A stretch of DNA of 64,000 nucleotides from Dehalococcoidia bacterium (GTDB taxonomy: Bacteria; Chloroflexota; Dehalococcoidia; UBA2979). The notes beneath the pieces were generated by a model. The model was not told the DNA's origin and did no database searches. It worked only from the letters and a program-made list of their open reading frames with translations. The stretch is from positions 2,401,225 to 2,465,224 of the forward strand of contig CBDBMD010000003.1 in NCBI GenBank assembly GCA_965207415.1, written 5' to 3'. Shown here one piece after another: positions 8,818-48,065 of the stretch (position 1 is its first letter; each line of letters starts with the position of its first letter). The position numbers and the translations under genes were made by a program.

Positions 8818-10065
8818 CTAGATCACTCCCTCGCGGCGCAGCGCCTCGAGCTCGTCCGCGGCGAGGCCGAGCGCGCCGTAGACCTCGGCGTTGTGTTCGC
8901 CGGTGAGCGGGGCGCGGCGGGTCGTGCCGAGCGGGGTCTCGGACCAGATGCCCCATGCGCCGGAGTAGCGGAAGCGCTCGCCCAGCTCGGGGTGCTCGAT
9001 CTCCTGCCAGTAGCCGCGATCCTCCCAGTGCGGATCGGGGAGGATCTCGTCGAGGCTCCGCACGGCGCCCCAGGCGTGCCCGCGCTCCTGCGCGCCCCGG
9101 TAGGCCTCCTCGGCGGGCACGTTCGGGAAGAAGTCGCGCAGCACGTCGCTGATGTGGTTCTGCTCCTCCACGATCTGCTGCTGCTCGGCGAAACGCTCGT
9201 CCAGCAGGTCGTCCGCGGCGCCGTACTGGTCCAGCCACTCGCCGATGCTCAGGAGCTGCTCGGGCGAGAGCCGCTGGTTGAACATCGCGTTCACGTACTT
9301 GCCGTCGGCGCACTGGAACTGCGTGCGCGGGCGCGGCAGCGACCATGCGGCGTGGCGGCCCGTCTGCCGGCGCAGCTCGCGCCCGGTGGCGAAGTAGATC
9401 GGCACCGCCATCTCCGTCGTCAGCGCGCAGGCGTCGTGGATCGAGACGTCGAGGAACTGCCCCTCGCCCGTGAACTCACGATCGAGCAGCGCGGTGGCGA
9501 TCGCCAGCAGCGCGTAGTGGCCGCCAATGTGCCAGGCGTTGCCGCCGCCCGGCGCTATCGGCGGGGCGTCCGGGGCCTCGTCCTCGTCGTAGCCGGAGGA
9601 GGCCATCTGCCCGCCGGCGGCCATGTGCACGAGGTCCGTCGCGATGTAGTCGCGCCAGGGCCCCTCTTGCCCGAACGGCGAGAGCGAGCAGTAGATCAGC
9701 TCCGGGTCCGCGCCTCGCAGCTCCTCCGGCCCGAGGCCCAGCGCCGGCAGGGTGCCGGGGCGCGTGGTCTCCAGCAGCACGTCGGCCCCGGCGACAAGCG
9801 AGCGGAACAGCTCGGCGCCGCGCGGGTCCTCGAGGTCCAGCGTGACGCCGCGCTTGCCGCAGTTGTAGTGCCAGAAGGAGAGCGAGCGCTCGCGGTGCGG
9901 CTCGTCGTGGTAGTAGGGGCCGACCTCGCGCTCGTCCGAGCCGCCCGGCGGCTCGACCTTGATGACGTCGGCGCCCAGCTCGGCGAGCAGGCGGCCGCAC
10001 CAGCGACTCGCCTCGCCTCCGAGCTCGACGACGCGCAGGTCGGCGAAGGGCAACTCTCCGCTCAT
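8818..10065 (-). CDS. Family III CoA-transferase (catalytic Asp retained)
   Basis: ATG at 10065 gives 415 aa starting MSGELPFADLRVVELGGEASRWCGRLLAELGADVIKVEPPGG. The Asp-motif region reads IATDLVHMAAGG. The start overlaps the upstream stop by 4 nt. Confidence 0.88.
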   Translation of the reverse strand: MSGELPFADLRVVELGGEASRWCGRLLAELGADVIKVEPPGGSDEREVGPYYHDEPHRERSLSFWHYNCGKRGVTLDLEDPRGAELFRSLVAGADVLLETTRPGTLPALGLGPEELRGADPELIYCSLSPFGQEGPWRDYIATDLVHMAAGGQMASSGYDEDEAPDAPPIAPGGGNAWHIGGHYALLAIATALLDREFTGEGQFLDVSIHDACALTTEMAVPIYFATGRELRRQTGRHAAWSLPRPRTQFQCADGKYVNAMFNQRLSPEQLLSIGEWLDQYGAADDLLDERFAEQQQIVEEQNHISDVLRDFFPNVPAEEAYRGAQERGHAWGAVRSLDEILPDPHWEDRGYWQEIEHPELGERFRYSGAWGIWSETPLGTTRRAPLTGEHNAEVYGALGLAADELEALRREGVI

Positions 10066-11423
10066 GACGCCTCCTCCGTCCCGGCCTCCGCGGCCTCGTC
10101 GAGCAGGTAGGGCTCGAGCGGCTCGCTCGGCGGCCAGAGCCAGCCATCCTCGTAGCCGCCGCGCAGCTCCTCCTCGCTCAGGCCGAGCATGCCGCACAGC
10201 ACCTCGCGGTTGTGCTGGCCGGCGAACGGCGCGACGCGCCGCGCCGTGGTCTCGTTCACGGCGGACTGCCACGGCAGGTTCTGGTAGCCCCGCTCGCCCA
10301 CTACGGGGTGATCGTGATGCGAGAAGAGGCCGCGCTGGCGGATCTGCGGGTCGTGCTCGACGCGGTTCTCGTTGCTCTGCACCGGCATCGCCGGCACGCC
10401 CGCCGCCTGGCAGCGCTCGGCCAGTTCGTACTTGCCGAGGGTCAGCGTCCACGCCTCGATCCGCTCGTCGAGCGCCTCCTGGTGCTCGAGCCGGCCCTCG
10501 AGGCCGTCGAAGCGCGCCTCGGCGGCCCACTCCGGCGAACCCATGACCTCTTGCAACGCCTGCCAGTCGGCGTCGTCGCGGCAGACGATGGCGCACCAGT
10601 CGTTGTAGCCGCCGCCTGCCGTGCGGTAGGCGTTGTGCGGGGCGGCGATCGCGCCGCGATAGTTGTGCAGCAGCGGCGTACCGGGCCAGTGCGCGCGGTT
10701 GCCGGGCGGGAAGCCCTCGCGGCGCGCGGGCCGCCCGTTCACCGTCGCGTCGAGGATCGCGGAGCCCGCGAGGCCGATCCCGAGCCCGGCCTGCGAGACG
10801 TCGATGTGCTGGCCGCGGCCGGTGCGCCTGCGCTGCCGCAGCGCGCTGAGGATCGCGATCGCTCCGAAAATGCCTCCCGTGTCGTCGAGGTAGGACCAGC
10901 CCCAGCCCGCGGGCGGCCGGTCCGGCAGCCCGGAGAGAAACGTCAGCCCGGAGAGCGCCTGCGCGCTGGGACCGAAGGTGCGGTAGGGATGATCGCGGCC
11001 GCTGTGGCCGAGGCCGGACATCGAGACGTAGACCAGGCCGGGGTTCAGCTCGCGCAGCTGCTCGTAGCCGAGCCCCCAGCGCTGCATCACGCGCGAGGTG
11101 AAGTTCTCCAGCACCGCGTCGGACTCGGCGAGCAGCCGCCTCAGCAGCTCTCGCGCGCGCTCGTCGCGCAGGTTCATCGTGACGCTGCGCTTGTCCATGT
11201 GCTTCTCGACGAACCAGTGATTGCCCTCCAGACTCGGTACGGCGTCCTCCGGCATCCCGACGGTGGTGAAGCGGTCCTGGTGGTGGACCGTCCCGCGCTG
11301 CGGCCACTCCACCTTGATCACGTCCGCCCCGAGCGTCGCGAGGATGCGCGTCGCCCATGGCCCCGCGCGCACCCAACTGAGGTCGACGATGCGCATGCCC
11401 TCGAGCGCGAGTCGCTTCGTCAT
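10062..11423 (-). CDS. Family III CoA-transferase-like subunit (Asp position is Gly)
   Basis: 453 aa with MRIVDLSWVRAGPWATRILATLGADVIKVE. The motif region reads RTFGPSAQALSGL where canonical members have G[FY]D. It has 4-nt overlaps with both neighbours. Confidence 0.85.
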   Translation of the reverse strand: MTKRLALEGMRIVDLSWVRAGPWATRILATLGADVIKVEWPQRGTVHHQDRFTTVGMPEDAVPSLEGNHWFVEKHMDKRSVTMNLRDERARELLRRLLAESDAVLENFTSRVMQRWGLGYEQLRELNPGLVYVSMSGLGHSGRDHPYRTFGPSAQALSGLTFLSGLPDRPPAGWGWSYLDDTGGIFGAIAILSALRQRRRTGRGQHIDVSQAGLGIGLAGSAILDATVNGRPARREGFPPGNRAHWPGTPLLHNYRGAIAAPHNAYRTAGGGYNDWCAIVCRDDADWQALQEVMGSPEWAAEARFDGLEGRLEHQEALDERIEAWTLTLGKYELAERCQAAGVPAMPVQSNENRVEHDPQIRQRGLFSHHDHPVVGERGYQNLPWQSAVNETTARRVAPFAGQHNREVLCGMLGLSEEELRGGYEDGWLWPPSEPLEPYLLDEAAEAGTEEAS

Positions 11424-11923
11424 GCCGGCGCCTCCGATCGCTCCAGCTCCGCGTCGAGCCGCCAGGCGGTCGTGCCGTCGGCTGCCCCGAGGGCGCGCCA
11501 GGCGGGCACGGTGTAGGCGCCGTCCGGCGCTTCCTCCCAGGCGACCTCGACCGCGACGCCCACGCCCGCCGCGTCCTCGCCGTCGAGCAGCAGCCCGGCC
11601 AGCCGCACGGGCTCGCCGTCCTCGTTCGCGCAGTCCGGCAGCTCGACGAGAGCGACGACGTAGGGAGCGGCGGGGCGGAAGGCGGGGAGCACCGAGTGCG
11701 CGACGACCACGTAGCTGGCGATCACGCCGCGGCCTTCGGCCTCGTGCCAGGTGAGGTCGAAGGAGCGGCAGCGCGGGCAGAGCGGCGCGGGTGGATACCA
11801 GCGCTGCCCGCAGTCGGCGCAGGCCCGCACGAGCAGCCGCTGCTCGCGCGCCGCCGCCCAGAACTCCTCCGAGTCCGGGTCCGGCTGCAGCGCGATCAGC
11901 GAGTAGTCGACGGCTCCCTGCAT
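11420..11923 (-). CDS. DUF35 OB-fold/Zn-ribbon acyl-CoA-associated protein
   Basis: ATG at 11923, 167 aa. Zn ribbon CADCGQRWYPPAPLCPRC followed by an OB-fold region. Confidence 0.85.
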   Translation of the reverse strand: MQGAVDYSLIALQPDPDSEEFWAAAREQRLLVRACADCGQRWYPPAPLCPRCRSFDLTWHEAEGRGVIASYVVVAHSVLPAFRPAAPYVVALVELPDCANEDGEPVRLAGLLLDGEDAAGVGVAVEVAWEEAPDGAYTVPAWRALGAADGTTAWRLDAELERSEAPA

Positions 11924-26616: not shown

Positions 26617-26639
26617 CGGCATCGGCGCGCCGATGCCGC
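26616..26639. promoter_or_regulatory. 24-bp perfect palindrome spanning the Uma2 stop and the CoA-transferase start codon; contains the right copy of the 18-bp repeat
   Basis: gcggcatcggcgcgccgatgccgc is its own reverse complement. The ATG of the 26633 CDS lies inside the right arm. Confidence 0.6.
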
Positions 26640-29116
26640 CAGCCGCCGCAGCGCCGCCGCTCTCCGGCATCCGCGTGCTGGACCTGACCACCGCGCGCTG
26701 CGAGATCGGCGGCCGGATCCTCGCCGACCTCGGCGCCGAGGTGCTGAAGATCGAGCCGCCCGAGGGCTGCGACGCGCGCCGCATGCCGCCCTTCGAGGAC
26801 GGCCGCGAGGGCGAGCCGGACGGCTCGCTCTACTGGGCCGCCTACGGCGCCAGCAAGCGCAGCGTCGTGCTCGACCTCGCCTCGGAGCAGGGCCGCGCGG
26901 GCCTGCGTGCGCTCGCCGAGGGCGCCGACGTGCTGCTGGAGTCGTTCGCGCCCGGTCAGCTCGCGGCGCTCGGGCTCGGCTACGAGGATCTGCGCGCGCT
27001 CAACCCCGCGCTCGTCTACGCCTCGATCACGCCGTTCGGGCAGAGCGGGCCGGACGCACAGTCGCCGGCGAACGAGCTGACCATCGAGGCGGCCGGGGGG
27101 CTGCTCTCGCTGCAGGGCGACGGCGACCGGCCGCCGATCCCGGTCGGCTACCCGCAGGCCGGGCTGCACGGCGGCGCGCAGGCCGCCGCCGACGCCGTGG
27201 TGGCGCTCGTCGAGCGGGACCGCTCCGGCCGCGGCCAGCACCTCGACGTCTCGATGCAGGCCTGCATGGTCTGGACGATGATGGACGCCAGCGGCTACCC
27301 GCCGAACGAGGGCGGCGACAAGCCCGGCTACGGGGACGACCGCGCCGAGCCCCGGCCTCCCCACCCCTCCGGCCTCCACCTGCCGCGCGTGGTCGCGGCC
27401 GCCGACGGCCACGTGATCACCACGATGGGCGTCAACCTCCCGCAGCGCATCGCCATCAACGAGACCATCGCCTGGATGAAGGAGGCCGGCGTCGAGCTCC
27501 CCGAGCGCCTGCAGGCGATCGACTGGGAGCACTGGCACGAGCAGTTCGCGGACCCGAGCGCCGTCCCGGCGGAGACGCTGGCGCTGATCGACGAGGCGGT
27601 CCGGCTCGCGGTCGAGTTCATCGGGACGAAGCCGAAGCGCGAACTGAACGAGCGCGCCGTCGCGAGCGGGGCGCTGATCGCGCCGATCATGACCGCCGCC
27701 GATCTCCTCGCGGACCCGCAGCTTGCCTCTCGCGACTACTGGAGGGAGGTCGAGGGCCGCCCGCACCCCGGACCGTTCGCCAGGCCGAGCCGCACGCCGC
27801 TGCGCAGCCCGCAGCCCGCGCCCGCCCTCGGCGAGGCGAACGCGCTGCTTGCCGAGCCACGCCGGCCGGCGCCGGCCGTGCGCCCCGACACGAGCGCCGC
27901 CCCGGCGCGCACGAGGGCGTTCGAGGGGCTCAAGGTGGCCGACTTCTCGTGGGTCGGCGTCGGTCCGCTGCTCGGCAAGGCGCTGGCAGACCACGGCGCG
28001 ACGGTGGTGCGCGTCGAGACGGCGAAGCGCATCGACACCCTGCGCGGGATGGGGCCGTTCAAGGACGGCATGCGGGACGTCAATCGGGCGCAGTTCTTCG
28101 CCAACTTCAACTCCTCGAAGCTGGGCATGACGCTCGACCTCTCGAGCGAGGGCGGCCGCTCCGCCGCGCACAGGCTCGCGGGCTGGGCGGACGTGGTCCT
28201 CGAGAGCTTCACGCCCGGCACGATGGAGCGGCACGGGCTGGGCTGGGAGGCGCTGAGCGAGGGCCGCGACGACCTGCTGATGGTGCGCACCTGCCTGCGA
28301 GGGCAGACCGGTCCGGAGGCGCCGCTCACCGGCTTCGGCAGCCAGGGCGCCGCGCTGGCCGGGCTGCACGGCGTGACCGGCTGGCCGGACCGCCCGCCCG
28401 ACGGGCCCTACGGCGCCTACACGGACTTCATCAACCCGCGCTTCGGCCTCGCGGTGATCGCGGCGGCGCTCCGTGAGCGCGCCCGCAGCGGACGGGGCCA
28501 GCTGCTCGACATCTCGCAGGTCGAGGTCGGCATCCACTTCCTCGCGCCGCTCGTCCTCGACTACGCGGTCAACGGCCGCGTCGCGCCGCCCGCCGGGCAC
28601 GACTCGCGCACCGCCTGCCCGCACGGCGTCTACGCCGTCGCCGGCGCCGAGCGCTACATCGCGATCGCCTGCGAGACGGCGGAGCAGTGGCATGCGCTGC
28701 GCGATCTCGCCCGCCTCGAGGGCTTCGACGGCGCCGAGTTCGAGCGCTACGAGGGCCGCCGCGCCGCCCGCGATCGCATCGACGAGGCGCTCCGCGCCTG
28801 GTGCGTGGCGCAGGACGGGCACGCCCTCGCCGCGCGGTTGAAGGCGGCGGGCGTCCCGGCCTCGGCGGTGCTGCGGGCGAGCGACCTCCACCGCGACGCG
28901 CAGCTCGCCCACCGCGGTTTCTTCGTCACGCTCGACCACCCGGAGATGGGTCCGACGCCCTATGACGGCCTCGCGACCAGCTACTCGGAGACGCCCGGCA
29001 CGCCCCGCAAGCCCGCGCCGCTGCTGGGCGAGGACACGCACTACGTGCTCACGGAGCTGCTCGGCCATTCCGCCGAGGAGGTGGCGATCCTCGCGGCGAG
29101 CGGGGCGCTCACCTAG
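26633..29116 (+). CDS. Fused two-domain family III CoA-transferase
   Basis: 827 aa. Domain 1 starts LSGIRVLDLTTARCEIGGRILADLGAEVLKIEPPEG. A Pro/Ala linker follows. Domain 2 starts FEGLKVADFSWVGVGPLLGKALADHGATVVRVE. Confidence 0.88.
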   Translation: MPPAAAAPPLSGIRVLDLTTARCEIGGRILADLGAEVLKIEPPEGCDARRMPPFEDGREGEPDGSLYWAAYGASKRSVVLDLASEQGRAGLRALAEGADVLLESFAPGQLAALGLGYEDLRALNPALVYASITPFGQSGPDAQSPANELTIEAAGGLLSLQGDGDRPPIPVGYPQAGLHGGAQAAADAVVALVERDRSGRGQHLDVSMQACMVWTMMDASGYPPNEGGDKPGYGDDRAEPRPPHPSGLHLPRVVAAADGHVITTMGVNLPQRIAINETIAWMKEAGVELPERLQAIDWEHWHEQFADPSAVPAETLALIDEAVRLAVEFIGTKPKRELNERAVASGALIAPIMTAADLLADPQLASRDYWREVEGRPHPGPFARPSRTPLRSPQPAPALGEANALLAEPRRPAPAVRPDTSAAPARTRAFEGLKVADFSWVGVGPLLGKALADHGATVVRVETAKRIDTLRGMGPFKDGMRDVNRAQFFANFNSSKLGMTLDLSSEGGRSAAHRLAGWADVVLESFTPGTMERHGLGWEALSEGRDDLLMVRTCLRGQTGPEAPLTGFGSQGAALAGLHGVTGWPDRPPDGPYGAYTDFINPRFGLAVIAAALRERARSGRGQLLDISQVEVGIHFLAPLVLDYAVNGRVAPPAGHDSRTACPHGVYAVAGAERYIAIACETAEQWHALRDLARLEGFDGAEFERYEGRRAARDRIDEALRAWCVAQDGHALAARLKAAGVPASAVLRASDLHRDAQLAHRGFFVTLDHPEMGPTPYDGLATSYSETPGTPRKPAPLLGEDTHYVLTELLGHSAEEVAILAASGALT

Positions 29117-29149
29117 AATCACGAACCACGTTGGGTGGCCGGGGGCGCG

Positions 29150-29692
29150 ATGACCAAGGTCGAGGGCGAGTACGACATCGAGGCCGTGCGCGCCGAGTGG
29201 ATCGGCAGGAGGACGCCGCTCTACCACGGCCGCTACCCGGTCGAGTACGACCCGATCCGCCGCTACTGCCACATGGTGGAGGACGACAACCCGCTGTTCC
29301 TCGATCCCGACTACGCGGCGACGACGAAGTGGGGCGGCGTCATCGTGCCGCCGGTGATGACCGACTACTTCGCCGGCAGCGGCGCCTGGCCCGAGGAAGA
29401 CGAGCCCGCGCTCATCCTCCAGGTGCCGACGCGCGGCGACCGCACGATCAATCTCAACATCAGCTGGGAGTTCGTCCAGCCCGCCCGCATCGGCGACCGG
29501 CTCTCGCGGCAGACGGAGATCGAGGAGATCTACCAGAAGCCGACGCGGCTTGACCCGAGGTCGATCTGGATCGCGGCGAAGACGACGATCTTCAACCAGG
29601 ACGGCGAGGTCGTGGCGATCGGCAGGAACACGATGGTCGCCCACCGCCGGCCCGAGGAGTTCGCGGCCGAACTCGAGGGGAACGGCGGATGA
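29150..29692 (+). CDS. MaoC_N / FAS1-like hotdog dehydratase subunit
   Basis: About 180 aa with an alternative GTG start at 29135. Contains RRYCHMVEDDNPLFLDPDYA. The stop overlaps the next start (ATGA). Confidence 0.75.
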   Translation: MTKVEGEYDIEAVRAEWIGRRTPLYHGRYPVEYDPIRRYCHMVEDDNPLFLDPDYAATTKWGGVIVPPVMTDYFAGSGAWPEEDEPALILQVPTRGDRTINLNISWEFVQPARIGDRLSRQTEIEEIYQKPTRLDPRSIWIAAKTTIFNQDGEVVAIGRNTMVAHRRPEEFAAELEGNGG

Positions 29693-30147
29693 GCGGCGAG
29701 CCGCGCGCGCAGCGCTACTGGGACGACGTCACCGCCGGCGAAGACCTCGAGGGCTTCACGTTCACGCTCGGCTGGACGGAAATGGCGAAGCAGGTCAGCG
29801 GCTCGCAGGACTTCCACAAGGTCCACCACGATTTCGAGTTCGCGCGCGAGGGCGGGCACGAGACGATCTTCTACAACACGGGATTCACGCGCGGCTGCCT
29901 CGGGCGCCTGCTCACGGACTGGATGGGCCCTGAGGGCTGGATCCGGACGTTCGGCTTCCAGATGCGGCGCATGAACACGCCCGGCGACGTGATGTCCGTC
30001 AGGGGCCGCGTCACCGGCACGTCCGAGGGCGACGACCCGGACACGGGCGTGGTGAACCTCGAGATCTGGATCGAGAACACGCGCGAGGGCGTGACGACAC
30101 CGGGAACGGCGACCGTGCTGCTGCCGCGGCGCGCTGAGGGGACATAG
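29689..30147 (+). CDS. MaoC-family (R)-hydratase hotdog subunit
   Basis: 152 aa. The region SGSQDFHKVHHDFEFAREGG resembles the MaoC hydratase motif. Confidence 0.8.
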   Translation: MSGEPRAQRYWDDVTAGEDLEGFTFTLGWTEMAKQVSGSQDFHKVHHDFEFAREGGHETIFYNTGFTRGCLGRLLTDWMGPEGWIRTFGFQMRRMNTPGDVMSVRGRVTGTSEGDDPDTGVVNLEIWIENTREGVTTPGTATVLLPRRAEGT

Positions 30148-30151
30148 CACG

Positions 30152-30631
30152 ATGGCCAACGCGACGAAGGCCGAGATCGAGGCGGGCGGCACCTACTTCC
30201 CGACGCCCGTGGCCTACCCGGCCACGATGAACGACGACCTCGACAAGCCGTTCATCGAGGGCACGCAACGCGGGGAGCTGTGGTTGCAGTTCTGCACCGC
30301 CTGCGAGCACTTCCAGTGGGGGCCGGAGTGGCTCTGCCACCGCTGCCTCAGCTCCGACTTCGAGTGGCGGCAGGTGGAGGGGCGCGGGCGGATCTACTCC
30401 TGGGAGCGGGTCTGGCACCCGGTGCACCCGGTGCTCCGGGAGGCCGTGCCCTACGTCGTGGTCGTCGTCGAGTTGCCGCATGCCGACGACATCCGCCTGG
30501 TCGGCAACCTGCTCGGCGATCCCGAGGAGGAGGTCGTGATCGGCAGCGCGGTCGAGGCCGTCTACGAGCACCACGCGGACGCCGACCCGCCCTTCACCCT
30601 CGTCCACTGGTCACGCCTCGAGAGCGAGTAG
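30152..30631 (+). CDS. DUF35 OB-fold/Zn-ribbon protein
   Basis: 159 aa. Zn ribbon CTACEHFQWGPEWLCHRC followed by an OB-fold. Confidence 0.85.
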   Translation: MANATKAEIEAGGTYFPTPVAYPATMNDDLDKPFIEGTQRGELWLQFCTACEHFQWGPEWLCHRCLSSDFEWRQVEGRGRIYSWERVWHPVHPVLREAVPYVVVVVELPHADDIRLVGNLLGDPEEEVVIGSAVEAVYEHHADADPPFTLVHWSRLESE

Positions 30632-30678
30632 CAGCCGGACGCGCGATTCGACCGAGGCGACAGCGAAAGGAGCGACGC

Positions 30679-31839
30679 ATGGACTTCCAGATGCCCGACG
30701 ACGTCGTTGAGTTCCGCGAGCAGATCCACGACTTCATCCGCCGGCACCGCACGCCGGAGCTGGAGGCGGAGATCGCCGGGCACCACCTGCACGGCTACGG
30801 CCCCGCCGCCGAGGCGTTTCTCCAGGCGCTCGCCGACGAGGGCCTGCCTTCGATCGCCTGGCCCGAGGAGTACGGCGGACGCGGCAAGGGCGCGCTCTAC
30901 CTCTGGATCCTCTCCGAGGAGCTCGCGCGCGAGGGCATGCCCTGGGACACGCTCACCTTCAACTCCGTCAGCCCGACGATCATGCGTCACGGCAGCGAGG
31001 AGCAGCGGCTCGAGTTGCTGCCGAAGGTCCTGACCGGCGAGGTCCGCTTCGCCCTCGGCTACACGGAGCCGAACGCCGGCACGGACCTCGCCTCGCTGCA
31101 GACGCGCGCCGTCCGCGACGGCGACGAGTGGGTGCTCAACGGACAGAAGATCTACACCTCCTCGGCGCACCTCGCGACGCACGTCTGGCTGGCCGCGCGC
31201 ACCGACCCGGACGCGCCGAAGCATCGCGGCATCTCCACCTTCGTGGTGCCGCTGAGCACGCCCGGCATCACCGTGCGCCCGCTCTGGGTGATGGGCGAAG
31301 GCCGCACCAACGAGACCTTCTACGAGAACGTGCGCATCCCCGCCGACGCGCTTGTCGGCGAGGAGAACCGCGGCTGGTACATCGTTACCGGCGCGCTCGA
31401 CCTCGAGCGCGTCGCGATCGGCACCTACCGCCCGCTGGAGCGCAGGGTGCAAAACATCATCTCCTACCTCGTGGCCGAGCGCGGCGATCTGCTGGACGAC
31501 CCGGCCACGCGCATGGCCGTCGCCGAGGCCTCGATGCGCGTCGAGGTGGGGCGTGCGCTGGCGACCAACAACGCGGCGATGGTGCACAACGACCTGGTGC
31601 CGACGATGGAAGCCGCAATGTCCAAGATCTGGAAGGGCGACTCCAGCGAGCGCATCCACGACGCCTTCATGGACATCCTCGGCCGCAGCGGCGGGCTTCA
31701 CGAGTCGAACGAGGACGCCCCGCTCGGCGGGATGCTCGAGGCGGGGTGGCGCAGCGACCCACCCGGCCGCTTCGCGGGAGGCACCAACGACATCCAGCGG
31801 CGCGTGATCGCCACGCGCGGCCTCCAGCTGCCGCGATAG
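30679..31839 (+). CDS. Acyl-CoA dehydrogenase (likely catalytic subunit)
   Basis: ATG 30679 with a GAAAGGAG RBS, 386 aa. Has an IVD-type base context, ALDLERVAIG. The C-terminal YEGT position reads AGGTNDIQ. Confidence 0.9.
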   Translation: MDFQMPDDVVEFREQIHDFIRRHRTPELEAEIAGHHLHGYGPAAEAFLQALADEGLPSIAWPEEYGGRGKGALYLWILSEELAREGMPWDTLTFNSVSPTIMRHGSEEQRLELLPKVLTGEVRFALGYTEPNAGTDLASLQTRAVRDGDEWVLNGQKIYTSSAHLATHVWLAARTDPDAPKHRGISTFVVPLSTPGITVRPLWVMGEGRTNETFYENVRIPADALVGEENRGWYIVTGALDLERVAIGTYRPLERRVQNIISYLVAERGDLLDDPATRMAVAEASMRVEVGRALATNNAAMVHNDLVPTMEAAMSKIWKGDSSERIHDAFMDILGRSGGLHESNEDAPLGGMLEAGWRSDPPGRFAGGTNDIQRRVIATRGLQLPR

Positions 31840-31849
31840 GAGGCGCACC

Positions 31850-32935
31850 ATGGACCTCCGACCGAGCGAACTGCAGGACATCCTTCGCACCAGCGCCGCC
31901 GACTTCTTCGAGCGCGAGGTCAGCTTCGAGCGGATCCGCGAGATCGAGGCGGCGAACCGCCCCGACGAGCAGCTGCAGGGCCAGATGACCGAACTGGGCT
32001 GGAACTCGCTGGCGATCTCCGAGGACTACGGCGGCCAGGGCGGCACCGTGCTCGACGCGGGCGTGTTGATCACCCAGATCTGCCGCGCCGCGCTGCCCTC
32101 GCCACTCGCCAGCACGCTCGTCGGCGCGGTCACGATCGAGCGCCACGGCGACGAGGAACTGAAGACCTCGCTGCTGCCGCAGCTCAACAGCGGACTCACG
32201 ATCTCGCCCGCGCTGCTCGAGGCGTCGGACTCGCTCTACGGCCCGGTCACGGCGGAGTACGCCGGCGGCGCGGTCACGGGCGAGAAGCGCTTCGTCGAGT
32301 TCGGCGAGACCAGCGACGTGCACCTCGTCGCTGCGATGCGTGACGGCGCGCCGGGCCTCGCCGTCGTGCGCCGCGACCAGCCGGGCGTCTCGGCCCGCGA
32401 CACGCGCACCATCGGCGCGCTGCCGCAGGCAGCGGTCGCGTACGACGGCGCGGCGGCCGAGGCCTGGATCGAGGGCGCGGACGCCGTCGAGACGATGCGC
32501 CGCCTCGGGGCGGCGGTCGCCGCGTTCGAGACCTACACCTACGCGCAGAAGGCGCTCGACCTGACGGTCGACTACGTGCAGATGCGGGTGCAGTTCGGGC
32601 AGCCGATCGGCGCGTTCCAGATGGTGCAGATGCGCTGCGCGGACATGGCGACGATCGTCGAGGGATCGCGCTTCCTCGTACACGAGCTCCTGTGGCAGAT
32701 CGACGAGGGCCTCGACACGCGCCGGCAGGTCGCGGTCGTGAAAGCGGTGACGGCGAAGATGGCCCCGCAGGTCCTGCAGGACTGCCACCTGCTGCACGGC
32801 GGCATCGGCTACATGCAGGAGTACGACCTGCACTTCTTCACCCGCCGCGGCCGGGACGCCGCGCTGCGCTGGGGCAGCGCCCGCGAGACGATGAACATCG
32901 TCACCGAGGAGGCCTTCGCCGCCGCCTCGGCGTAG
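31850..32935 (+). CDS. Acyl-CoA dehydrogenase family protein (likely non-catalytic partner)
   Basis: 361 aa with the ACAD C-terminal motif LHGGIGYMQEYDLHFFTRR. I see no Glu at either usual catalytic-base position. Confidence 0.82.
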   Translation: MDLRPSELQDILRTSAADFFEREVSFERIREIEAANRPDEQLQGQMTELGWNSLAISEDYGGQGGTVLDAGVLITQICRAALPSPLASTLVGAVTIERHGDEELKTSLLPQLNSGLTISPALLEASDSLYGPVTAEYAGGAVTGEKRFVEFGETSDVHLVAAMRDGAPGLAVVRRDQPGVSARDTRTIGALPQAAVAYDGAAAEAWIEGADAVETMRRLGAAVAAFETYTYAQKALDLTVDYVQMRVQFGQPIGAFQMVQMRCADMATIVEGSRFLVHELLWQIDEGLDTRRQVAVVKAVTAKMAPQVLQDCHLLHGGIGYMQEYDLHFFTRRGRDAALRWGSARETMNIVTEEAFAAASA

Positions 32936-32956
32936 CGGGGGCGGACTGCTCCGTGG

Positions 32957-34321
32957 CTATAGGCTCCGCTCGGCGAGCGCTGGTCCGTCGAGCCGATGCG
33001 ATTGCCCGGCGCGCCCGTGCGAGTCGAACTCGATGCCCTCAGCCGCGAGGACCTCAAGCGGATCTCGCGTGTCCGAATTGTCGCCCCAGTAGAATCCCCC
33101 GGAGACCCGACCATCGGCCGTCAGGACACGATAGCCCACTCGGCACGGGTTCTCCGGGCAGCGAGCTATGTGTCCGGCCACTGCCTGCGCGGAACTGCTG
33201 ATCGCTTCCGCGAGATCGCCGTAGGTAGTCCACTCGCCGGGTTCGATATGTCCCAACAACTGGTGCAAGTCCGACCAGTCCCGTGGCCGTCCCGCAGTCC
33301 CGAAGCCAGCCAGTTCCGCTAATGTCTCGCCGCTCACGGTCCTCCATACCCTCGGACCCCTGAGGACAGGTGGTCGATCGCCGGACACTTGCCCCACAAT
33401 CTCTTTCGCGAGCCCGGTTGGACTCCAATGCTGATCGTCGATCAACCAGGTGAGGGGCCGACTGCGGTGATTGCGCCACGTCGCCTGGCCGCGCTGCGGC
33501 TCCTCAGCAATCCACGCGGCTACCGCCTCACGCGCCTCGGGTGGGCGAAGACGGTCAACGTCGATCGTCAGGAGCGTGCCATCCTCAAGGACCCCGTCAT
33601 CGACGAGCTGCCCAACAGCATTCGCTTCACGACGCGTCCTGACGCGCTCGTGGGCTGCCCGCAACTCCGCCTGGCGCGGGGAGACCGTGAAGTCCTCGAC
33701 ATCCGGCACCGGCCAGATCTGCGAGACCGTCAGCACGGTCTCGCTCCCGGTGCGATATGCATTGAAGCTGACGAGCGAGACGTCCAAGCCCATCTCAGTA
33801 AGCCAGACCGCGCTCGCCGTCACCTGAGGGGGAAAGCTTGCGGCCATCAGTGCAATCCGTGGTTGCCGGAGAAGGTCAGGGTCAAGTTCCCCGCCCGCAT
33901 GCGCCTCAAGTCGCTCACGCGCCTCGTCTTCCGAGACCGGACCTCCCTCGACTCTGGTCAGGTAGGCAGCATGATGTTCGGCCAGCGTCTGCGGGGTGAA
34001 GCGGCTGGCGAATGCCGCGTACTTGACCGCCTGCATCTCCACGGTGTCCGGAGCGGGGCCGCGCTTCAGTTCCGCGACCACGAGCCGACCGTCGTCGTCC
34101 AGGCCCAGGAGATCGAGGCGATCGGCTGCACGCCCGTCGCGCGCGCGCCACGCGCCGAACTCGAAGGTCACGATGCGTACGGCTTCGCCGAGGATCTCCG
34201 GATTCTCGCGCACCCATTCCTGCAGATCGGCGCGCTCGCGGAAGCCCGCCTCCGCGAGGCTGATCTCCGTTGCGGGCGTGGCGGCCCCAGGCTTAACCGT
34301 GAACACCAACTCGCCGGGCAT
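32957..34321 (-). CDS. Fusion protein: NucS/DUF91-like PD-(D/E)xK nuclease + DUF4357-like region + Cys-less MGMT/ATL-like domain
   Basis: 454 aa. N-terminus: DRLDLLGLDDDGRLVVAELKRG. Middle: QHWSPTGLAKEIVG...GPRVWRT. C-terminus: TTYGDLAEAI...VGYRVLTADGRVSGGFYWG...VLAAEGIEF. GC is lower than in the neighbours; the line at 33361 counts 62%. Confidence 0.6.
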   Translation of the reverse strand: MPGELVFTVKPGAATPATEISLAEAGFRERADLQEWVRENPEILGEAVRIVTFEFGAWRARDGRAADRLDLLGLDDDGRLVVAELKRGPAPDTVEMQAVKYAAFASRFTPQTLAEHHAAYLTRVEGGPVSEDEARERLEAHAGGELDPDLLRQPRIALMAASFPPQVTASAVWLTEMGLDVSLVSFNAYRTGSETVLTVSQIWPVPDVEDFTVSPRQAELRAAHERVRTRREANAVGQLVDDGVLEDGTLLTIDVDRLRPPEAREAVAAWIAEEPQRGQATWRNHRSRPLTWLIDDQHWSPTGLAKEIVGQVSGDRPPVLRGPRVWRTVSGETLAELAGFGTAGRPRDWSDLHQLLGHIEPGEWTTYGDLAEAISSSAQAVAGHIARCPENPCRVGYRVLTADGRVSGGFYWGDNSDTRDPLEVLAAEGIEFDSHGRAGQSHRLDGPALAERSL

Positions 34322-34402
34322 ATGGTCTCCCCCTGCGCCCGGCGCAGGCTACGCAAGTGCCGAGGGGCTGTCACTGGCGCTCAGCGAGCACCCGCCCGGC
34401 CG

Positions 34403-35230
34403 TCAGCCGAGCTCGTCCGCCGTCCGATCGCCTGCGTCGTAGTCGGCGAACAGCTCGTCGTAGTGCTCCTGCAGCACGTCCCGGGCGTCGGGGTGGGTGA
34501 AGATGAAGCGGCGGTTCTCGCGGGCGCCTTGCAGCAGGCGAGGAATGAACGCCTCCGGGGGTGGGGCCTCGATGCGGGGCGGGGCGAAGTCGTCGTCGGG
34601 CCCGCCGTAGCGCTGCTGGCGGACGCGCACGGCCCTGCGGATCTGCGTGTCCATGCGGCTCGGGCACCAGCACGAGACGCCGATGCCCTCGGCCGCGAGC
34701 TCGTGTCGCAGCACGTTCGAGTAGCCGACGACGGCGTGCTTCGCGGCGGTGTAGACGCCGTTGACGTTCTGCCGCCCGACGAGCCCGGACATCGAGGAGG
34801 TGAGCACGATCTGCGCCGGCCCCTCCTGCTCGCGCAGCAGTGGCAGGAACGCCTGCACGCTGTGGATCACGCCCCAGAGGTTGACCCCGAGGATCCACTC
34901 CCAGTCCTCGCTGGTGGCCTCCGCCAGCGGTGTGTTCCTCATCACCCCGGCGTTCTGGAAGAGCACGAGCCCGTTGCGCTCCGCGCCGAACGCGGCGCGC
35001 GTGCGCTCGGCCAGCGCGTCGACCGAGGCGCGGTCGGCGATGTCCGTGCGCACGGCGATCGCCTCGCCGCCGCCCTCGCGGATCTCAGCCGCGACGGCCT
35101 CGCCGGCGCCGCCGTCGATGTCCGCGACGACGACGCGCATGCCGTCCGCGGCGCAGGCATGGGCGAGGGCGCGCCCCGCGCCGCCGCCCGCACCCGTCAC
35201 CACCGCCACGCTGCCCGTGAAGTCCTGCAT
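34403..35230 (-). CDS. Short-chain dehydrogenase/reductase (SDR)
   Basis: ATG 35230, with an alternative GTG at 35248. Contains VAVVTGAGGGAGRALA. Confidence 0.9.
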   Translation of the reverse strand: MQDFTGSVAVVTGAGGGAGRALAHACAADGMRVVVADIDGGAGEAVAAEIREGGGEAIAVRTDIADRASVDALAERTRAAFGAERNGLVLFQNAGVMRNTPLAEATSEDWEWILGVNLWGVIHSVQAFLPLLREQEGPAQIVLTSSMSGLVGRQNVNGVYTAAKHAVVGYSNVLRHELAAEGIGVSCWCPSRMDTQIRRAVRVRQQRYGGPDDDFAPPRIEAPPPEAFIPRLLQGARENRRFIFTHPDARDVLQEHYDELFADYDAGDRTADELG

Positions 35231-35316
35231 CACCCCACCCCCACTCACGTCGCTGAGCCTACGACCTCGCGAAACCGGGTGTCACGCTTCGGGCAGGGCC
35301 GGCTCGACGAGCCCCG

Positions 35317-36405
35317 CTACTCGCTGTTCGAGGGCGCCTCGGAGCCGCGCCTGCGCTGCACCAGCACGTAGCGAGCCCGCCCGCCGTGTCCGCGCACGCC
35401 GAACTGGAACCCGCCCCAGCCGCGCGTGAAGTCCACCTCGTCCTCGAAGCTTACGAGCTCGAGCCCCGCCGCCTCGCCCTGCTCGATCAGGCCTGTCCAG
35501 TCGACATCGCTAGTGATGTCGAAGGCGCCAACCTCATGGCGCGGCCCGAAGTAGCGGGCGGGGACGCCGCGCCCGGCGATCAGCGCGCGATTCGCGTAGC
35601 CGTAGTCGATCGTGATCACCACGCCTCGATCGAGCGCGCGCCCGAGATCCGCCATCCAGCGGCGCGCGAGCGGGCAGACGCTGAACTCGACGCCGTCGGG
35701 TGGCGTGACGCCAAGCGCCCGCACGTTGTCCTCGAGCGCCGCGTCCGAGGGCGCGAGCGCGGTCTCGAAGAACTCACCCTGCTGCCCGTCCCAGCCGACG
35801 TGGATCGCAAGCAGACGACCCTCGGAACGGAGCAGCCGGTGGAAGGGGAAGGCGTCGGGCAGTTCGACGGAGACGAAACAGCCGGTCAACCCGGCCAGCG
35901 GCAGGCTCCAGGCTGAGGCGAGCACGACCTGCGCGCCGAGGTCGGCGGTGCGCTCCGCCTGCCGTCGCGCCAGCGCCGGGCTGATCTCGAGCAGCACGTA
36001 GCGCAGCGCCTCGCCGAACCCCGATGCCGACTCCCGAGCGCCCTCGATGATGTCGCGCGCGAGCACCCCGCTGCCGCCGCCGCCCTCGACGACGGTGAAC
36101 GGCGCGGGGCGGCCGAGGTCGGCCCAGTGCCCCTCGATCACGCGCGCGAGGCCGCGCCCGTAGTCGGGGCTGTAGAGCTCGGTGGAGGTGAAGAAGTCGC
36201 CGCCGGGGCCGAAGCGGACCGTGCCGCCGCCGTAGTAGCCACCCTGCGCGCGCGAGGACGGCAGCGCGTAGAGCGCGATCTCCATGAACTCGGCGAACGG
36301 GATCGGGCCGCCGCGCTCCTCGATGCGGCGCGCGAGCCGCGCCTCGACCGTCAGCCAGACCGAGGGCGGGACGGAGGCGCGGGCGGGGGCGCCCTCGGAG
36401 GTCAC
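35317..36405 (-). CDS. Class I SAM-dependent methyltransferase, MidA/DUF185 (NDUFAF7-like)
   Basis: 362 aa. Motifs: FAEFMEIALY, GGDFFTS and FTVVEGGGGSGVLARDI. Confidence 0.75.
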   Translation of the reverse strand: MTSEGAPARASVPPSVWLTVEARLARRIEERGGPIPFAEFMEIALYALPSSRAQGGYYGGGTVRFGPGGDFFTSTELYSPDYGRGLARVIEGHWADLGRPAPFTVVEGGGGSGVLARDIIEGARESASGFGEALRYVLLEISPALARRQAERTADLGAQVVLASAWSLPLAGLTGCFVSVELPDAFPFHRLLRSEGRLLAIHVGWDGQQGEFFETALAPSDAALEDNVRALGVTPPDGVEFSVCPLARRWMADLGRALDRGVVITIDYGYANRALIAGRGVPARYFGPRHEVGAFDITSDVDWTGLIEQGEAAGLELVSFEDEVDFTRGWGGFQFGVRGHGGRARYVLVQRRRGSEAPSNSE

Positions 36406-36436
36406 GGGGCGGCTGTGGGCCGGCGGCGCGTGCCCG

Positions 36437-37249
36437 TCAGCGCAGCTTCCATTGCGGCGGGCGCTTCTCGGCGAAGGCGCGCGGGCCCTCGATCGCGTCC
36501 TCCATGGCGTTGACCTTGTCGAACATCGCCCGGCCCATGCGGCGCGCCCAGTAGTTGTCGTTGAACATGTAGCGGTACATGAACTCCTTGTGGGTCCAGA
36601 CGGAGACGGGCCCCATCTGGCAGACTTCCTCGGCCCACGCCTTCGCCTCGTCGAGCAGCTGCTCCTTCGGCACGATCTTGTTGACGAAGCCGATCTCGTA
36701 CATCCGCTGCGCGGTGTACTGGCGCGCGCCCCACATCGTCATCTCGAGGGCGATCGCCGGAGGGATGATGCGCGTTGCCTGCGCCATGAACGAGGCGGGG
36801 AGGTTCCAGCGCACCTCGGGCACGCCGAACATCGCGTGCTCGACCGCGATCCGCACATCGCAGATCTGGGCGAGGTACCAGCCGCCGGCGACGGCGAAGC
36901 CGTTGATCGCGCCGATCACCGGCTTCCAGAAGTCGTGGTCGAGCGGGGCGAAGTTGCCAAGCCCACCGTGGTCCTTGACGTACTGGTTGAAGCCGCCCTC
37001 GTACTCCCCGTCCAGCTCGGCGCGGTCCCTGAGGTCCTCGCCCGCGCAGTAGAAGCGCTCGCCCGCGGCGGTAAGGATGACGGCCCAGATCTCGTCGTCG
37101 TCCTTCAGTTCCTCCCAGGTGTCGTCGAGGCGCCGCCCGAGGTCGAAGTTGATCGAGTTGCCGCGCTCCTCGCGGTTGACCGTCAGGATCGCGTAGTGCT
37201 GTTCCGGGAAGCGCTCGACCAGCAGCACCTCGTCGCCTCGAATGGCCAC
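36437..37249 (-). CDS. Enoyl-CoA hydratase/isomerase family protein
   Basis: GTG start with an AAGGGGGAG RBS, 270 aa. Contains GAINGFAVAGGWYLAQICDVRIA. Confidence 0.88.
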   Translation of the reverse strand: MAIRGDEVLLVERFPEQHYAILTVNREERGNSINFDLGRRLDDTWEELKDDDEIWAVILTAAGERFYCAGEDLRDRAELDGEYEGGFNQYVKDHGGLGNFAPLDHDFWKPVIGAINGFAVAGGWYLAQICDVRIAVEHAMFGVPEVRWNLPASFMAQATRIIPPAIALEMTMWGARQYTAQRMYEIGFVNKIVPKEQLLDEAKAWAEEVCQMGPVSVWTHKEFMYRYMFNDNYWARRMGRAMFDKVNAMEDAIEGPRAFAEKRPPQWKLR

Positions 37250-47989: not shown

Positions 47990-48065
47990 TGGCGCGCCGG
48001 GAAGGATTCGAACCCTCGACCATCAGATCCGAAGTCTGACGCTCTGTCCCCTGAGCTACCGGCGC
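47990..48065 (-). tRNA. tRNA-Arg, anticodon UCG, CCA encoded
   Basis: The reverse complement folds as GCGCCGG TA GCTC AGGGGACA GAGC G TCAGA CTTCGGA TCTGA TGGTC GAGGG TTCGAAT CCTTC CCGGCGC G CCA. All four stems pair, and the total is 76 nt. Confidence 0.93.

Follow-up and report, generated by a model that had tools for sequence, protein, structure and literature searches.

Type IV restriction enzymes pair a nuclease with a reader of modified bases; known readers include SRA, EVE/PUA-like, winged helix, DUF4268 and other domains, and they mostly recognize modified cytosine or adenine. Alkyltransferase-like (ATL) proteins flip a base into a non-catalytic pocket, and their free-standing forms hand lesions to nucleotide excision repair. 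MdgA, described as having ‘NucS and DUF4268 domains’, is a modification-dependent anti-phage nuclease (bioRxiv 10.1101/2025.02.28.640651; Cell Host Microbe 2025). It is required, and by itself enough, to protect against T4, though not against unmodified T4-GT7; the purified protein breaks down T4 DNA much more efficiently than GT7 DNA, and an E77A substitution kills this activity (bioRxiv 10.1101/2025.02.28.640651). A survey of GmrSD Type IV enzymes lists DUF4268, DUF4357 and PF01035 as accessory domains, and mentions the fusion of PF01035 to Type IV enzymes in one sentence only, without characterization (Machnicka et al. 2015, PMC4619093). RAMA, in turn, was defined through fusions with restriction nucleases and has been suggested to read methylated adenine (Iyer, Zhang & Aravind 2015, PMC4738411). 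Here, we analyzed a 64,000-nucleotide stretch of a Dehalococcoidia bacterium genome (contig CBDBMD010000003.1; hereafter ‘the window’) and focused on a gene that encodes a NucS-like nuclease, a RAMA-like domain and a C-terminal ATL-like domain in a single chain. With a probability of roughly 0.6, this nuclease-ATL protein is a single-polypeptide, modification-dependent (Type IV-like) restriction endonuclease that acts against phage or other foreign DNA.

The nuclease module gives the strongest sequence match of the protein, to the PADLOC family PDC-S11. Five PDC-S11 hidden Markov models match aa 6–232, with E-values from 2.4e-48 to 3e-23. An AlphaFold model of the full protein (built on 47 homologs; mean predicted local distance difference test score, pLDDT, of 88) has EndoMS/NucS as its best solved structure in Foldseek (5gke, E=2.4e-4), and the nuclease domain likewise matches the NucS structure 2vld. 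Pfam NucS_C is matched weakly (aa 31–90, E=0.025, 15 bits against a cut-off of 24), as are Shedu SduA (8ps5, E=0.08), Hachiman HamA (8vxy, E=0.15) and Card1 in Foldseek. These matches bear out the NucS-style PD-(D/E)xK N-terminus proposed in the initial annotation of this DNA. Unlike NucS/EndoMS, the window protein has the nuclease half only and lacks the N-terminal mismatch-binding domain; with the NCBIfam NucS equivalog models it reaches 24.6 bits where the cut-off is 216, and 14.2 bits where it is 252. The catalytic motif DRLDLLGLDDDGRLVVAELKRG aligns with ...VDVMGVDKDGNIVVLELKR of NucS and ...LVIIE77NKLDD of E. coli PDC-S11. Within a 47-sequence homolog alignment, D70, E84 and K86 are invariant, as are R68, Q97 and Y101. 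By analogy with NucS, the nuclease is probably dimeric.

Canonical PDC-S11 proteins consist of the nuclease followed directly by DUF4268. One PDC-S11 protein from an E. coli plasmid (WP_106735854.1, 387 aa) matches the family end to end (E=2.7e-182), and its gene, of the canonical type, lies between hsdS and hsdR of a Type I restriction-modification (R-M) operon on E. coli pSTEC388_1 (L095, NZ_CP041426.1, 2234–10196). The primer used to make the E77A substitution in MdgA encodes V-I-V-(E)-N-K-L-D-D (bioRxiv 10.1101/2025.02.28.640651), and the glutamate of E. coli PDC-S11 has the same residue number. From the domain description and the primer motif, we infer that MdgA belongs to the canonical PDC-S11 type, with E84 in the window protein as the likely counterpart of E77. 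A scan of metagenome contigs for MdgA with a primer-derived 27-mer gave no match. The nuclease chassis is already a known defense candidate (PDC-S11) and is apparently validated as MdgA.

The window protein and PDC-S11/MdgA share a homologous nuclease, the same D...ExK motif, a single-gene organization and a putative recognition module at the C-terminus. They differ in that PDC-S11/MdgA proteins are ~350–390 aa long and place DUF4268 directly after the nuclease, whereas the window protein has an extra ~115-aa RAMA-like domain and ends in the ATL-like domain instead. Consistent with this difference, the window protein has no match to DUF4268 in a Pfam scan, and the C-terminal part of the PDC-S11 models fails to match it. 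The published experiments cover the DUF4268 form only, and the ATL type is known here from its sequence.

Homolog searches detected about 570 family members, with 186 loci in reference genomes; an exact-sequence look-up of the window protein in an assembly index gave no record. The initial annotation had asked whether the nuclease D/E/K residues are conserved: D70, E84 and K86 are invariant in 44 of the 44 members outside one Acidimicrobiaceae clade, and every ATL-type homolog examined keeps them along with Y101 and R68. The Acidimicrobiaceae clade comprises 32 loci (L048–L084, ~10001–11512) that encode ~502-aa relatives with nuclease, RAMA-like and DUF4268 domains, in conserved synteny and with native codon usage and GC content at third codon positions (GC3). 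In these proteins the D70 equivalent is replaced by S, T, H, W, Y, N or P and Q97 is lost, while E84 and K86 are kept. From its sequences, the clade has the look of a defense gene that became domesticated, with a nuclease that is probably altered. Loss of the nuclease site thus does occur in the family, and the window protein might likewise have been domesticated, binding DNA without cutting it (for example as a regulator or chromatin-like factor) while retaining the nuclease fold. We consider this highly improbable: D70, E84 and K86 persist in the window protein and in every ATL-type homolog examined, and the composition and allele dynamics of the ATL type (below) are those of an accessory gene. 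In five reference genomes (L015, L019, L030, L042 and L049) the homolog frame, which starts at 10001, ends early, after 35–290 aa, with similarity continuing beyond; judging from the sequences, these would be either pseudogenes or frameshift errors in long-read metagenome-assembled genomes.

The C-terminal domain matches PF01035 over aa 354–413 (E=2.6e-8, 34 bits against a gathering cut-off of 27). A profile of 30 family members found S. pombe Atl1 as its best match in the PDB (3gva, E=1.6e-5), aligned almost end to end and ranked ahead of catalytic MGMTs (1mgt) and Vibrio vpAtl (2kif); Foldseek on the model matched 1mgt and 3gva. The PCHRV site of MGMT, Ogt and Ada, with its Cys and His, is absent from the window protein, and its NCBIfam ogt score is 18 bits, below the cut-off of 46. 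Across 39 homologs the acceptor-Cys column holds Ala in 30, Gly in 6 and Val in 2, and among full-length homologs the His column holds Tyr (22), His (10) or Gln (3); the window protein has Gly396 and Tyr397 at these positions. The initial annotation had described just such a Cys-less MGMT-like C-terminus and had proposed domain searches as a check on this assignment and on that of the nuclease – both are supported by the PF01035, PDC-S11, Foldseek and Atl1 profile matches.

Known ATL proteins (S. pombe Atl1, E. coli YbaZ/eAtl, T. thermophilus TTHA1564 and V. parahaemolyticus vpAtl) have, like the window domain, the MGMT C-terminal fold without the acceptor Cys. Unlike the window domain, which is fused to a nuclease and a RAMA-like domain, they are ~110-aa free-standing proteins. 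They also share with it the conserved base-flipping tyrosine, the arginine of the HRV motif (R398) and a C-terminal LE.EGV motif. The tyrosine (Y25 in Atl1, Y114 in hAGT) corresponds to Y367, aligns with the Tyr of Atl1 TYGEIA and is present in 38 of 39 homologs. Tyr367, Arg398, Gly404, Phe410, Trp412 and Asp414 are invariant or nearly so in these homologs, and Y367, R398, F410, W412 and D414 remain near-invariant even in ATL-like domains from other architectures. The nuclease-fused domain departs from Atl1 in that R39 is replaced by Gln379 (and varies across homologs), Trp56 by Gly or Ala, and in the addition of H353, H384, C388 and C393. This set, which may form a metal site, is kept in most, not all, ATL-like domains of other architectures. 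Many free-standing ~100–130-aa ‘MGMT family’ proteins of Actinomycetota (P0158, P0180, P0208 and others) belong to the same ATL-like subtype.

The middle module was modeled as an isolated domain with AlphaFold2 (aa 231–346; pLDDT 92.7, predicted template modeling score 0.85). Its best PDB match is the RAMA–DNA complex of MPND (7ydw_B; TM 0.54/0.65, root-mean-square deviation 3.1 Å, probability 0.94, E=0.12), followed by the C-terminal domain of the adenine methyltransferase CcrM (6pbd, E=0.52), with nothing else close. A second line of evidence comes from protein P0128, in which a Pfam RAMA domain (E=7.5e-19) precedes the same ATL-like domain and which aligns to aa 238–451 of the window protein (E=2e-25). 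A direct hhalign comparison of the middle domain with the RAMA-containing P0128 was sub-threshold (E=0.012). Pfam scans of the window protein found no RAMA (PF18755) or DUF4357 match above threshold, and scans of ten diverse isolated middle domains found no significant match to either, with one of the ten giving DUF4357 at E=0.016. Relative to P0128 the window domain contains an insertion, and it is too diverged for the Pfam RAMA and DUF4357 thresholds. W270, R277, W282, W292 and W326 are near-invariant across homologs. The initial annotation had called this segment DUF4357-like. That resemblance is real, because Pfam's model of DUF4357 and the C-terminal half of RAMA overlap in P0128, but the 7ydw_B fold match and the P0128 alignment probably make RAMA-like the better name.

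Across relatives, the nuclease and RAMA-like core is constant and the C-terminal module is ATL-like, DUF5655, DUF4268, DUF6416 or none. The DUF4268-type relatives match PDC-S11 models in two pieces, with the extra middle domain in between. Forms of ~340 aa without a C-terminal module exist; a 360-aa protein with nuclease and RAMA-like domains only, encoded on a MOBF conjugative plasmid of Rhodococcus aetherivorans (L096, NZ_CP154794.1, 5983–7065), is annotated merely as a ‘DNA-binding protein’. The nuclease chassis was found on 349 plasmids, with relatives on 218 Klebsiella and 41 E. coli plasmids. A search of a phage collection returned just one weak, unverified match, and hence no evidence of phage-borne copies; a PHROGs search returned nothing informative for the window protein. 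Elsewhere, the same ATL-like subtype is fused to RAMA and to GmrSD_C, part of a Type IV nuclease (PF01035 fragments with E-values down to 7e-34 against the family profile). GmrSD enzymes resemble the window protein in carrying this subtype as a C-terminal accessory, and the trio of DUF4268, DUF4357/RAMA and PF01035 recurs in them, whereas their effector is DUF262/DUF1524 (a ParB-like NTPase and an HNH-like nuclease) rather than a PD-(D/E)xK domain. To judge from these architectures, the interchangeable C-terminal modules follow the pattern of defense nucleases that join an effector to a variable sensor.

Not every defense nuclease need read a base mark. The RAMA-like and ATL-like modules could instead be general DNA-binding or regulatory domains, with activation left to some other cue (for instance free DNA ends, replication intermediates or a protein made by the phage), along the lines of Shedu/Hachiman-type nucleases. 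Domains of the MGMT fold bind DNA through a helix-turn-helix whatever the lesion, as MGMT structures show. The weak SduA and HamA matches, the ~340-aa forms that do without a C-terminal module (one of them on the conjugative Rhodococcus plasmid) and the unconserved arginine finger of the ATL-like domain all fit such a protein. Generic binding does not, on the other hand, sit well with near-invariant pocket and DNA-contact residues (Y367, R398, F410, W412 and D414) that persist even in other architectures. It is specifically with modification-dependent or R-M nucleases that RAMA, DUF4268 and PF01035 are repeatedly found (PMC4738411, PMC4619093), and the DUF4268 relative MdgA tells modified from unmodified T4 DNA in vitro. 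We regard generic binding as unlikely.

The behavior of the gene at its chromosomal locus provides a separate line of evidence. Two reference loci (L001 and L010) carry the same gene order as the window, and the flanking genes share 92–99% protein identity with both, against 66.6% for the nuclease-ATL gene. Synonymous divergence (dS) relative to L001 is 0.12–0.17 for the flanking genes and 1.09 for the nuclease-ATL gene. All three parts of the protein are under purifying selection: the ratio of nonsynonymous to synonymous divergence (dN/dS) is 0.13–0.38 in every domain, compared with 0.04–0.26 in the flanking genes. Protein identity to L001 is 87% over aa 1–105, 72% over aa 106–230, 51% in the RAMA-like domain and 57% in the ATL-like domain. 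At the nucleotide level, identity to L001 is 92–100% through the acyl-CoA dehydrogenase (ACAD) genes to about position 32921, collapses at the nuclease-ATL stop codon to 55–67% over the ATL-like and RAMA-like parts, rises to 85–88% at the 5' end of the gene and returns to 94–99% in the neighboring short-chain dehydrogenase/reductase (SDR) gene; the breakpoints are sharp at the gene ends.

The locus holds old, functional, strongly diverged alleles. Such alleles imply either that recombination has replaced one by another or that balancing selection has acted over a long time, with the putative sensor half most affected – behavior expected of a defense specificity gene, not of a housekeeping repair enzyme. 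A metagenome search for an ‘empty site’ (the ACAD pair next to the SDR gene without the nuclease-ATL gene) found four loci, none of them empty. Composition also sets the gene apart. The initial annotation gave a GC content of about 60%; by count it is 66.5% over the whole gene (65–67% in 500-nucleotide windows), though still below the 70–75% of the flanks. The shortfall lies in third codon positions (GC3 of 0.754, compared with 0.91–0.97 for the neighbors), and ATL-type homologs in general have a GC3 below that of every neighbor.

To place the family in its genomic context, we reviewed about a dozen annotated neighborhoods and clustered neighboring open reading frames (ORFs) at 80 loci, with genes around the loci called by a codon-usage log-odds caller. 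The clustering of these 80 loci identified no conserved partner gene outside lineage-specific synteny. A 406-aa gene directly downstream of the homolog at two unrelated loci was considered as a conserved partner and rejected; the two proteins are unrelated, and one is ZacA. The closest reference-genome loci belong to Dehalococcoidia and Tepidiformaceae (Chloroflexota), with many more in Actinomycetota.

Within Actinomycetota, the ATL-type gene is found repeatedly in defense or mobile islands. One homolog lies directly upstream of a complete Azaca system (ZacA, ZacB and ZacC; E 1e-129 to 0) and an integrase, and another has as its neighbors a Type III methyltransferase, ResIII, T5orf172 and also a transposase. 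On four contigs the gene follows McrB, McrC and DUF6308 genes, together with TIR, NERD and NERD-helicase genes. These Acidimicrobiales islands (L090–L093; e.g., L090 6068–9362 and 12056–12811) place the homolog so that it overlaps the end of the DUF6308 gene by 4 nucleotides, which suggests one operon. They also contain an AlkD-like ‘DNA_alkylation’ gene three genes downstream of the homolog, beside the TIR and NERD genes. Chloroflexota neighbors are mostly catabolic genes, in at least three synteny groups; in one such group (five loci) the gene adjoins SoFic (E=4.5e-114).

Placement in repair operons had been named as an observation that would count against a defense role. No homolog in the annotated neighborhoods adjoins uvr, ada, ogt, alkA or a repair operon; the genes are solitary and, in several independent lineages, stand beside known defense systems. 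This bears directly on the alternative that the protein is a lesion-directed repair endonuclease, whose ATL-like domain would detect O6-alkylguanine, or a lesion like it, in cellular DNA while the nuclease incises next to it, replacing the hand-off to nucleotide excision repair. Such an enzyme would explain why the C-terminal domain is closest to a bona fide ATL protein (Atl1, E=1.6e-5), with Tyr367 and Arg398 kept and the Cys gone; NucS, the nearest solved nuclease, is itself a repair enzyme, the chromosomal position is stable in several Chloroflexota, and an AlkD-like gene lies three genes away in one island. We nevertheless find a repair role decidedly unlikely. A dedicated O6-alkylguanine enzyme would not tolerate exchange of its C-terminal module for DUF4268, DUF5655 or nothing, and the arginine-finger position of the ATL-like domain is not conserved. 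GmrSD Type IV nucleases carry this ATL-like subtype as well, and an allele dS 6–10 times that of the flanks, together with atypical GC3, is unlike a housekeeping repair gene.

We therefore return to modification-dependent restriction as the reading we prefer. The architecture – a nuclease with putative reader modules – fits the Type IV class, and the restriction or defense role suggested in the initial annotation gains support from the PDC-S11/MdgA chassis, the GmrSD fusions of the same ATL-like subtype and the allele-replacement signature. As we envisage it, the RAMA-like and ATL-like modules would bind DNA and read a base mark, with the ATL-like domain probably flipping the base, in the manner of ATL proteins, into a pocket that is no longer catalytic. 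The PD-(D/E)xK module would be positioned or licensed by this recognition, and the modified DNA would be cut. Host DNA would be spared because it lacks the mark, so that no partner methyltransferase would be needed. Between sister genomes, the alleles at this site diverge most in their RAMA-like and ATL-like parts, and they probably have different specificities.

Several points weigh against this reading. The arginine-finger position (R39 in Atl1, R128 in hAGT) is Gln379 in the window protein and varies across the family (Q 19, R 13 and M 4 in full-length homologs; Q 71 and R 13 in other architectures); base flipping may for this reason differ from that of Atl1. To our knowledge, no phage modification at guanine O6 has been described. 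The statistics of the RAMA call are weak in the fold, hhalign and Pfam comparisons alike, and MdgA is tied to this family through the description of its domains and the mutagenesis primer rather than through its sequence. Finally, the survey for defense islands called for by the initial annotation found Azaca, McrBC/TIR/NERD, SoFic and Type III R-M neighbors, but the window gene and its closest relatives are flanked by lipid/steroid-like catabolic genes rather than a classical defense island, and two actinobacterial homologs have unremarkable surroundings.

The positions of the nuclease-ATL gene, its parts and its neighbors are listed in Table 1. The gene is complete, and full-length homologs (56–75% identity) share its start methionine. 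The ORF listing agrees with the initial annotation in placing it on the opposite strand between the ACAD pair and the SDR gene, and the peptide motifs quoted there are present in the translation. A 660-aa ORF that runs antisense across the nuclease-ATL and SDR genes (33389–35371, plus strand) was rejected as a high-GC artefact; it has a poor codon-position GC pattern and a poor codon-usage score, and it misled a simple GC3-based caller.

Table 1. Coordinates of the nuclease-ATL gene, its modules and motifs, and other features of the window.
Feature	Position	Strand	Details and basis
Nuclease-ATL ORF	32957..34321	-	ORF listing; ATG start, 454 aa and stop codon; complete; three-module single chain
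NucS-like PD-(D/E)xK nuclease module (PDC-S11 chassis)	33632..34321	-	aa 1-230; PADLOC and Foldseek matches
Catalytic motif DRLDLLGLDDDGRLVVAELKRG	34058..34123	-	aa 67-88, contains D70, E84 and K86; translation
RAMA-like DNA-binding or reader domain (probable)	33284..33631	-	aa 231-346; domain-only AlphaFold2 model and P0128 alignment
Cys-less ATL-like domain	32960..33283	-	aa 347-454; PF01035, profile and Foldseek matches
VGYRVL, counterpart of MGMT PCHRVV and Atl1 PWHRVI	33122..33139	-	Gly396 for acceptor Cys, Tyr397 for His, Arg398 kept
Stretch holding H353, H384, C388 and C393	33143..33265	-	invariant in 39/39 full-length homologs; absent from MGMT and Atl1
Spacer, 3' boundary of divergent allele	32936..32956	.	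21 bp between convergent ACAD2 and nuclease-ATL stop codons
Second ACAD gene (ACAD2)	31850-32935	+	adjoins 3' end of nuclease-ATL gene
SDR gene	34403-35248	-	81 bp upstream of nuclease-ATL gene
Steroid side-chain degradation-like cluster	26633-32935		
MidA-like/Methyltransf_28 gene	35317-36405		absent from L001 and L010
Enoyl-CoA hydratase gene	36437-37249		absent from L001 and L010
tRNA-Arg (TCG)	47990-48065	-	sole tRNA gene in window

The genes on the ACAD side of the nuclease-ATL gene resemble a steroid side-chain degradation cluster, with a fused double family-III CoA-transferase (827 aa), FAS1-like and MaoC-like hydratase subunits, a ChsH2-type OB-fold protein and the ACAD pair. On the other side, the MidA-like and enoyl-CoA hydratase genes (35317–37249 together), which come after the SDR gene and before a further enoyl-CoA hydratase gene, form a second indel right beside the nuclease-ATL gene; L001 and L010 are otherwise 92–99% identical to the window.

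A literature search found no paper tying alkyltransferase-like domains to restriction or anti-phage defense, and the architecture of nuclease, RAMA-like and ATL-like domains, the H353/H384/C388/C393 set and the allele dynamics appear undescribed so far. As for the mark itself, 7-deazaguanine derivatives and 2-aminoadenine are common in phages of high-GC Gram-positive hosts. It is possible, though doubtful, that the Cys-less MGMT fold is a base-flipping reader of such phage purine hypermodifications (7-deazaguanine derivatives or 2-aminoadenine), with the diverged alleles representing specificities under balancing selection. We know of no characterized Type IV enzyme that reads purine hypermodification by base flipping of this kind.

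An ATL-like domain offers a ready-made pocket for alkylated or otherwise altered guanine. The family is widespread (hundreds of homologs in Chloroflexota and Actinomycetota) and its members are single genes, which makes it easy to test, and the diverged alleles at one locus amount to a built-in specificity-swap experiment. Enzymes of this kind would be useful as reagents for mapping DNA modifications. If the ATL-like domain is the sensor, restriction would extend to a different chemical class of phage DNA modification, and a suicide repair protein that became a damage sensor in ATL proteins would have become an immune sensor. Were it a base-flipping reader of purine hypermodification, restriction enzymes would gain a new class of sensor – and the alkyltransferase fold a second role, this one in immunity.

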